64,000 nucleotides of DNA, taken from the NCBI RefSeq assembly GCF_044324785.1, contig NZ_CP172127.1; one strand, 5' to 3'. This DNA comes from Escherichia coli (GTDB lineage: Bacteria; Pseudomonadota; Gammaproteobacteria; Enterobacterales; Enterobacteriaceae). Shown piece by piece: positions 6,001-9,000 of the stretch (the first letter of the stretch is position 1; each line of letters opens with the position of its first letter). The position numbers were made by a program.

Positions 6001-9000
6001 GTCAGGGTTTACCTGACGCGCCAGATAAATAAAGCGCCCTTTCGGGTTGGCGTTAATGCGGGCTGAAAGCTGATCCAGCGGAATATTGAGTGCGTTAGCC
6101 AGCGCCTTCCAGCGATCACCGACGCTGATACCGCCAGCGTCATGCACTTCTTTCGGGTCAGCCCAAATCGCTTTTACCGGCACGCTCACCGCTAACGGGC
6201 GACCAGAACGGTCAGTAATCATGCCGCGGGAGGTGGAAACTTGCTGAACGCGAAGAGAACGCATGTCGCCCTCTTTCACCAGCATATCCGGGGAGATAAC
6301 TTGTAACCACGCTACGCGTCCGAGCAGAAAAGCCAGCGCCAGGAGAATACAGCCGCATAACAACGCAAAACGCCAACTGATAAAGTTGGCATGTTCTTCC
6401 TGACGTTTTGGTTTCTGCGTTTTCGCCGCTGCTTTCATGCGTCGCGTTTATCCTTATTTTTGCACTACGATATTTTCTTGTGACGGATCAACATGCTGCA
6501 TTTGCAGCTTTTCCGTGGCGATCCTTTCCACCCGGCTATGGTCGCCGAGCGCATTCTCTTCAAGGATCAGGTTGCGCCATTCAATGTCTAAAGCATCTCG
6601 CTCCAGCACCAGTTGTTCGCGCTGAGCGGTCAGTAAACGGGTATGGTGCGCCGTGGTTACCACGGTCACCGCCGTCAAAATAATGCAAATGAACAGGCAG
6701 AGTGGCAGCTTCCCAAATCGCAAAAGATCGTCACCGATAACACCAGGCAATGCATGGCGCTCGTGGCTTCCCATCGATCCTTTAACTTTGCTTAGAGCTT
6801 CTGTCACTCTGCTGATCATGCGTTCGTCCTCTCTGCAATACGCAGAACTGAACTACGGGCACGAGGGTTCTCAGCCACCTCTTCTTCGCCCGGCATTAAC
6901 TTGCCTAGTGCTCGCAGCTGACGGCCACCCAGTTTTTTGAGCTGCTCTTCAGTCATCGGTAACCCTGCCGGAACTTGCGGACCGCGGCTGTTTTCACGCA
7001 TAAAACGTTTCACAATACGGTCTTCCAGCGAGTGGAAGCTGATGATCGAAAGTCGCCCACCCGGGGCCAGCACGTTGAGCGAGCTTTTTAGCGCCTGCTC
7101 TATCTCCTCCAGTTCACTGTTTACCCAAATGCGCACCGCCTGGAAGGTACGGGTCGCGGGATGTTTAAACTTATCTTTCACCGGCGTTGCGGCAGCCACG
7201 ACTTCCGCCAGTTCTTTGGTGCGGGTCATCGGCTGTTCGCGGTTTCGCTCGACAATGGCGCGGGCAATGCGTTTAGCAAAACGCTCTTCACCGTAGGTTT
7301 TCAATACCCAGGCGATATCGGCTTCTTCTGCGGTTTGTAGCCATTCAGCGGCTGACTGCCCACGGGTTGGGTCCATACGCATGTCCAGCGGACCATCGCG
7401 CATAAAGGAAAAGCCGCGTTCAGCATCATCAAGTTGCGGTGAAGAGACGCCAAGATCGAGGAGAATGCCGTCGATCTTGCCGATAAGATCGCGCTCGGCA
7501 ACGTATTCGCCCAGCGCGGAGAAAGGTCCGTGGATGATGGAGAAGCGCGGATCATCAATAGTCTTCGCAACGGCGATAGCCTGCGGGTCGCGATCGATCG
7601 CCAGCAAACGCCCCTCTTCGCCAAGCTGCGAGAGGATCAGACGTGAGTGACCACCGCGACCAAAAGTCCCATCAATGTAGATGCCATCAGGACGGATATT
7701 GAGGCCATTAACGGCTTCATCCAGCAGCACCGTAGTATGTTTATAGTTTTCCATCATTTTATAGAGACAAGTCCTGCAGTCGCTCTGATAAGTCTCCAGT
7801 AGCCAACTGCTCTGCGTCGATATCTTCCTTGACCTGTTGATGCCAGGTTGTTTCATCCCACAGCTCAAACTTGTTGAACTGTCCAACCAGCATCACTTCT
7901 TTTGTCAGCCCGGCATGTTGCCGCAGTACTGGCGCGATTAACAATCGACCTGCGCCATCCATCTGACATTCGCTGGCATGACCTAACAGTAGGCGCTGCA
8001 CACGGCGCTCAACCGGGTTCATGCTCGACAGACGCGATAATTTTTGCTCGATAATTTCCCATTCAGGCAGGGGGTAAAGCAGCAGGCACGGGTGATGAAT
8101 GTCAATGGTGCAAACCATTTGACCGGCAGCGTTCTCAAGCAGCTGCTCCCGATAACGGGTAGGCACTGATAAGCGCCCTTTGCTGTCGAGATTGACTAAC
8201 GTTGCTCCCCGGAACATGCCAGCCTCACCCCTTATTCCCACTTTGCCCCACAATTTCCCACTGAAAGGAGTTTACGGAGCGGAGGAAAAGCTTGTCAAGC
8301 CAGTCACAAGGCATACCGAGGTAAAAAACCCGATGTTTACGGCTAATATCAGCGTTGTTTATTTTACGTCCAACGTGCGAAGCAAATTAACGTTATGAAT
8401 AGCTGTAAGAAAAAATCCCTCATCGTCATCACCGTTTTAAAATGACTAACTATTTTCCACAGCAAATATAAAGTGTCAGTTTGCGACGCGAGCGGCATTT
8501 TAGGACATATCTTCCCCGGTTAACAGTCCCTGTTGCGTCTGTGTGGCGCTTGATGCCAGCAGGTTTGCGCAAAAACAAAGAAAAGTGTTTGTTAAATCGG
8601 CAATTCATCTCTGCATGTAACAAAATAATGCAAAAACGCGCTGTCAATATCATTTAATTATTGTGAATTTCAGCAGGTGAGTTAATTAACGGGCGGGTTT
8701 AAAAGCATTTATCAATAATAGCCAGGAATAGTCTTATTTACTTTAAGGATATTGATGTCCATTCCCGTACTCAACGCGCCAGAGAGAAATTCACCTGGCG
8801 CGTATTTTTGTTCGCGGCTTAGCTACGGCTGAGCACGCCGCGGCGATAGAGATTACGTTTAATGCGCGTTAAACCAGGTTTTGGCTTACGCGGTTCGTCC
8901 AGGCTAGCCAGGACAATCTCCAGCACACGCTCTGCGACATCGCGGTGACGTTGAGCCACTGCCAGCACCGGGCACTGTAAGAAGTCGAGCAGTTCGTTAT

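Follow-up and report, generated by a model that had tools for sequence, protein, structure and literature searches.

[quoted passage not shown] Repression of the promoter, Pmra, is exerted through a repeated sequence that lies 'downstream of the -10 box' (PMC7761207). The mode of recognition has been described for Mycoplasma genitalium in a 2026 cryo-EM complex of MraZ (9R4J/9SZ7/9SX6): bases are contacted by Lys13, Arg15 and Arg86, both the number of boxes and their spacing matter, and the closed MraZ ring has to open before it engages consecutive boxes (PMC12957436). In Bacillus subtilis, a threefold repeat of GTGG[A/T]G-N4 is needed for MraZ to repress Pmra (bioRxiv 2022.02.09.479790).

Here we compare with these systems a set of three direct repeats located upstream of mraZ in a stretch of 64,000 nucleotides of E. 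coli DNA (contig NZ_CP172127.1 of assembly GCF_044324785.1), which is referred to below, at its full length, as the window. For E. coli itself, the exact coordinates of the published operator are taken from secondary citations. Eraso et al. 2014 (J Bacteriol 196:2053) reportedly described three TGGGN direct repeats with 5-nt spacers between Pmra and mraZ, which we take to be the array of the window in a register shifted by one base.

Results

Sequence and position of the repeats

From 8298 to 8215, the minus strand of the window reads TTGACA-AGCTTTTCCTCCGCTCCG-TAAACT-CCTTTCA-GTGGGAaattGTGGGGcaaaGTGGGAataaGGGGTGAGGCTGGC-ATG, a stretch that runs from the -35 hexamer of Pmra to the start codon of mraZ (8217-8215). 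It contains three hexamers in direct orientation, GTGGGA (8261-8256), GTGGGG (8251-8246) and GTGGGA (8241-8236), whose starts are exactly 10 bp apart and which are separated by gaps of 4 nt each (AATT and CAAA). Box 1 begins, with its first G, 44 nt ahead of the A that opens the mraZ start codon. An earlier, sequence-only reading of this DNA had noted three direct GTGGG repeats at helical-turn spacing within 45 nt of the mraZ start, and in these respects it was correct. The span that it gave, 8235-8262, does hold the array but exceeds it by one base on either side, and the N5 gaps that it placed between hexamers apply to the array in pentamer notation (GTGGG-N5-GTGGG-N5-GTGGG), not to the hexamers. 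The positions of all features are collected in Table 1.

Table 1. Features of the Pmra-mraZ region and their positions in the window
Feature	Position	Strand	Basis
Pmra -35 hexamer TTGACA	8293..8298	-	Promoter scan, 10/12 match for the promoter; kept across species
Pmra -10 hexamer TAAACT, 18-nt spacer from -35, 7 nt ahead of box 1	8269..8274	-	Promoter scan and cross-species conservation
Transcription start region	8255..8262	-	8255 from the published 38-nt 5' UTR; 8262-8261 predicted from the -10 position
Predicted MraZ operator, three direct boxes, exact 10-bp period (GTGGGAaattGTGGGGcaaaGTGGGA)	8236..8261	-	Unique in the window; identical to K-12; 80/80 Enterobacteriaceae species
Box 1, GTGGGA, GTGG core 8261-8258	8256..8261	-	Core 2.0 bits, fifth base 1.9 bits (75 distinct sequences)
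Box 2, GTGGGG, GTGG core 8251-8248, conserved TTT before it (ATT in E. coli)	8246..8251	-	Core 2.0 bits, fifth base 1.9 bits
Box 3, GTGGGA, GTGG core 8241-8238, conserved AAA before it	8236..8241	-	Core 2.0 bits, fifth base 0.84 bits
G-rich ribosome-binding region GGGGTGAGG, GGGG 8231-8228 in phase at +30 from box 1	8223..8231	-	1.63 bits at +30..+33
mraZ, 152 aa, cognate repressor	7759..8217	-	Pfam PF02381, E=4e-47; annotated mraZ in E. coli genomes

The array agrees with the published definition of MraZ boxes, namely at least three direct GTG(G/T) boxes with 6-nt gaps (PMC12957436), with GTGG beginning at 8261, 8251 and 8241. A chance origin of the triple repeat is excluded. When one mismatch is allowed, GTGGG-N5 x3 has a single match in the window (128 kb, both strands), and the pattern appeared in 0 of 100 dinucleotide-preserving shuffles of the window; the looser published pattern, GTGK-N6 x3, also matches once, versus 0.05 matches expected. 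A search of the window for further MraZ sites found box pairs (GTGG-N6-GTGG) outside the operator at chance level, with 1 extra pair versus 1.9 expected overall.

Promoter and transcription start

The 5' UTR of mraZ1p has been published as 38 nt (PMC5089854), which corresponds to a start at 8255, immediately past box 1. This position is 14 nt past TAAACT, as compared with the 7-8 nt predicted by promoter geometry, a discrepancy of 6-7 nt; at -12 to -7 relative to 8255 the sequence is CTTTCA, and no better -10 hexamer was found there. If +1 is at 8255, the boxes occupy -6 to -2, +5 to +9 and +15 to +19, and if it is at 8262 or 8261, they occupy about +2 to +26. Under both placements the boxes straddle or immediately follow +1, and their exact positions relative to it are uncertain either way.

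The mraZ gene and its product

The genes are arranged in the order cra-mraZ-rsmH-ftsL-ftsI, with an intergenic distance of 600 bp from cra to mraZ. The MraZ protein of the window is exactly WP_001295770.1, the annotated protein of Nissle 1917 and of a further two E. coli isolates that were examined. It is matched by PF02381 in two stretches and has both DXXXR motifs, D11-R15 (DSKGR) and D87-R91 (DGAGR). In alignments to the structures from M. genitalium and M. pneumoniae (E about 1e-11), its K13, R15 and R91 fall on K13, R15 and R86, the base-contacting residues of M. genitalium. Judged by its sequence, the cognate MraZ is intact in the window.

Variation among E. coli genomes

The 681-bp cra-mraZ region has matches in 5,423 of 5,426 complete E. 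coli genomes, and its identity to strains of the phylogroup B2 type, e.g., Nissle 1917 and ATCC 11775, is 99.4-99.6%. From the -10 hexamer through the mraZ ATG the window matches K-12 MG1655 (NC_000913.3) base for base, and the sole difference nearby is found in the promoter spacer at 8281, which is C in the window versus A in K-12. Three haplotypes of the 90-bp promoter/operator segment together make up 5,372 of the 5,423 genomes (3516+1309+547; 99.1%), and the boxes are identical in all of them. Of these genomes, 3,516 have the window's haplotype without change, 1,309 have that of K-12, and 547 have the third, in which there is a C-to-T change at 8263, two bases before box 1.

The same survey yielded several incidental observations. 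Three of the 5,426 genomes had no match, and three matches to this chromosomal region came from plasmid-labelled records. In E. coli WS3294A (NZ_CP035819.1, GCF_018884305.1), a 5-bp deletion of CAGTG at the window-equivalent positions 8259-8263 has removed the core of box 1, and mraZ is intact. Either the isolate is a natural mutant of the operator, or the deletion stems from an error of assembly.

Conservation in Enterobacteriaceae

One genome per species was scanned with the MraZ protein, and 80 Enterobacteriaceae loci with 88-96% protein identity were obtained. GTGK-N6-GTGK-N6-GTGK was found ahead of mraZ in 80 of the 80, and the consensus anchored at box 1 reads TTGACAAGCTTTTCCTCCGCTCCGTAAACTCCTTnn-GTGGGAaTTT-GTGGGnnAAA-GTGGtga.aaGGGg. 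None of the three GTGG cores varies among 75 distinct sequences (2.0 bits, as compared with an average of 0.68 bits for positions -100 to -60); the stretch between the -10 hexamer and box 1 has a mean of 1.16 bits. The boxes are more conserved in the orthologous promoters than is the flanking non-coding DNA. The 18-nt spacer of Pmra (8275-8292, AGCTTTTCCTCCGCTCCG) stands at 1.56 bits versus a background of 0.68 (80 species), which is about the conservation of the hexamers themselves, and conservation at such a level exceeds the needs of basic promoter function.

The fifth base of the boxes differs in its behaviour. It is G in boxes 1 and 2, at 1.9 bits, whereas at box 3 (8237; 0.84 bits) it is G in E. 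coli and T, C or A in 80 of 80 other species, including E. albertii and E. whittamii. Since none of the other species examined departs from GTGG[T/C/A] at box 3, the conserved unit is GTGG and not GTGGG, with TTT or AAA before boxes 2 and 3. The GTGGG that the sequence-only reading had taken as the repeat unit is indeed present three times in the window, but in this threefold form it is an E. coli peculiarity.

The distance from the start of box 1 to the ATG is 43-45 nt in 61 loci and 52-54 nt in 20 loci (81 loci, the window counted). The changes in length between box 3 and the ATG are insertions of ~10 nt, and the phase among the boxes is constant. The longer arrangement, with box 1 at -52 to -54, is seen in about a quarter of the species (Buttiauxella, Cedecea, Siccibacter and others; L054, L066, L073, L078, L081 and further loci); an AAGGG unit seems to have been duplicated to give the extra ~10 nt (AAAGGGG[AATTTAAGGG]TGAGGC), and the helical phase is kept. 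One record in the set, CACSKA010000010.1, is titled 'Chryseobacterium sp. 18061' and has a mraZ locus of the Enterobacteriaceae type with 93% protein identity; it is probably a mislabelled record or a contaminated assembly.

Alternative explanations

There is a small chance that E. coli has gained something beyond an ancestral operator of three boxes, for which there are two scenarios: (i) a G-quadruplex specific to E. coli, formed with G8237 and the GGGG at 8231-8228; or (ii) a degenerate fourth MraZ box, in which the same GGGG would take the place of a core (aaGGGG as compared with aaaGTGG). The first is suggested by G8237 in combination with the in-phase GGGG: of 81 mraZ promoters from Enterobacteriaceae, only the one with this combination has a canonical G-quadruplex motif. 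With regard to the second, 20 species have a 10-nt insertion ahead of the ATG, and of these 11 retain GGGG at +30 and 3 have GGGT there. In these species the unit is not a Shine-Dalgarno sequence, because it is too far from the start codon, and it may instead represent a fourth, degenerate box. Mycoplasma and Burkholderia, with their four-box operators, offer a parallel for such a box in E. coli. An implication of either scenario, if true, is that a second control layer, or a structure that can be targeted by ligands, would have been added to Pmra in E. coli.

It is highly improbable that the G-runs function chiefly as a G-quadruplex of the non-template strand, such that the folded structure and not a protein controls the output of Pmra. 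The window does have a canonical motif, GGG-N7-GGGG-N6-GGG-N5-GGGG at 8259-8228, in which no loop exceeds 7 nt and for which G4Hunter peaks at 1.68, and for an isolated 51-nt stretch ViennaRNA with G-quadruplex energies (RNA parameters) gives the quadruplex -8.4 versus -4.4 kcal/mol. In addition, a G-quadruplex of this kind has been proposed for PmraZ of Staphylococcus aureus, and its conservation in Gram-negative bacteria has been claimed (PMC11796246, 2025). The canonical motif, however, is present in 1 of 81 sequences, that of the window, box 3 having merely GG in the 80 other species, and the predicted quadruplex is lost when box 3 is given the G-to-T state of those species. In this way a G-quadruplex as the main function was rejected on conservation. 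The prediction also depends on context: a start at 8255 would give an mRNA with only three GGG tracts, and in the mRNA context, with either start site and 30 nt of coding sequence, no quadruplex is predicted. A quadruplex does not need several of the invariant features: a T and a leading G in each GTGG, boxes in exact 10-bp phase, and spacers rich in A/T. The invariant T, the phase and the A/T-rich spacers favour a protein, because a reader of successive major grooves needs them.

The primer of the S. aureus 'G4 mutant' alters Gs within GTGG-N6 boxes, making the loss of the quadruplex inseparable from the loss of an MraZ box. In the supplement of PMC11796246, the primer Mut_PmraZ_Fwd carries changed Gs inside the S. 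aureus GTGG-N6-GTGG-N6-GTGG array, that is, in the MraZ operator, which was left unconsidered there. The S. aureus PmraZ reporter of that study was read in E. coli DH5alpha, a host with MraZ.

It is likewise highly improbable that the repeats are conserved for another role, with MraZ binding being incidental, either as an initial-transcribed or 5'-UTR element (acting in promoter escape or translation) or as the target of a different regulator, e.g., PdhR: the region does span the transcription start and a short 5' UTR, the +30 G-rich unit overlaps the ribosome-binding region, and weak binding of PdhR to a mraZ upstream fragment has been reported (PMC3265435), but PdhR-like boxes (<=3 mismatches) are fewer than expected by chance with none at the repeats, an Rfam scan of 8100-8900 found no family at E<=1, the RNA fold of the UTR and early coding sequence is not significant (z = -0.61), and Firmicutes, Mollicutes and Burkholderia have the same architecture of three to four GTG(G/T) boxes ahead of their mraZ, where direct binding has been shown. 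Because of the architecture shared across those groups, the pattern tracks the MraZ protein and not a species-specific UTR function. Among the individual candidates, the PdhR box was rejected on its counts, and a hairpin over the ribosome-binding site, AUG and early coding sequence (-14.9 kcal/mol) is not considered a feature, 49 of 200 shuffles folding as well.

Discussion

The three repeats are, with high probability, the E. coli MraZ operator of Pmra (mraZ1p), and they form a predicted binding site for the repressor encoded immediately downstream. The sequence-only reading had proposed an MraZ operator and had regarded it as intact, and both proposals gained support from the identity to K-12 between the -10 hexamer and the ATG, from the occurrence of the array in 80 of 80 species with invariant GTGG cores, and from the intact cognate MraZ. 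The operator is an already known one that is intact in the window, and it is ordinary.

The way in which the operator would act can be outlined, with binding, repression and base contacts taken from the literature. Three direct GTGG(G) boxes stand directly past the -10 hexamer and span the transcription start, and because there is one box per helical turn, they lie on one face of the DNA. One MraZ subunit would engage each box from the major groove with its beta-sheet 'cradle', using Lys13, Arg15 and the second DXXXR motif's arginine, and adjacent subunits of the MraZ oligomer would bind cooperatively. Occupancy of about -6 to +26 would overlap the footprint of RNA polymerase, and the expected outcome is that mraZ is repressed along with the dcw genes nearest the promoter (rsmH, ftsL, ftsI and onward), which would amount to negative autoregulation. 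Repression would most likely work by steric occlusion, which we infer because a cooperative MraZ assembly on one face would overlap the polymerase footprint under either transcription start; the step blocked would be the formation of the open complex or promoter escape.

The leading genes of the cluster for division and cell wall are transcribed from Pmra, and autorepression by MraZ at these boxes is the known control point. To an annotator, the intact site signals no more than the usual regulatory arrangement for the strain. The modest by-products of the analysis are the recognition of GTGG at a strict 10-bp phase as the conserved unit in Enterobacteriaceae, with a third GTGGG in E. coli only, a comparative case against a G-quadruplex, and the finding that the S. 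aureus quadruplex mutant is confounded.

Among the known systems, the S. aureus PmraZ motif resembles the window in having a G-rich stretch between promoter and mraZ, and its bases are those of GTGG-N6 boxes. That motif has been interpreted as a G-quadruplex drug target, whereas a canonical quadruplex motif is found, among the Enterobacteriaceae examined, only in E. coli. In Burkholderia cenocepacia, a repeated GTG motif likewise lies past the -10 and overlaps the transcription start, and binding was demonstrated there by EMSA (PMC7761207); unlike in the window, there are four 7-nt repeats with 3-nt spacers and a 5' UTR of 100 nt. The B. subtilis operator has the geometry of the array in the window, with three GTGG-containing hexamers and 4-nt spacers; its fifth base is A/T rather than G.

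The operator of M. genitalium shares with the window direct GTG(G/T) boxes, a 10-bp period and an overlap with the transcription start, and one MraZ subunit is bound per box there. It differs in having four AAAGTGT/G boxes instead of three GTGGG, the MraZ proteins are 28% identical, and the oligomer is an octamer in M. genitalium as compared with the dodecamer reported for E. coli (PMC12957436). Finally, the closest described system is the experimentally characterised operator of E. coli K-12 (Pmra/mraZ1p), which belongs to the same species and the same locus, has the same three direct repeats within the same sequence from the -10 hexamer to the ATG, and is without difference from the operator of the window.
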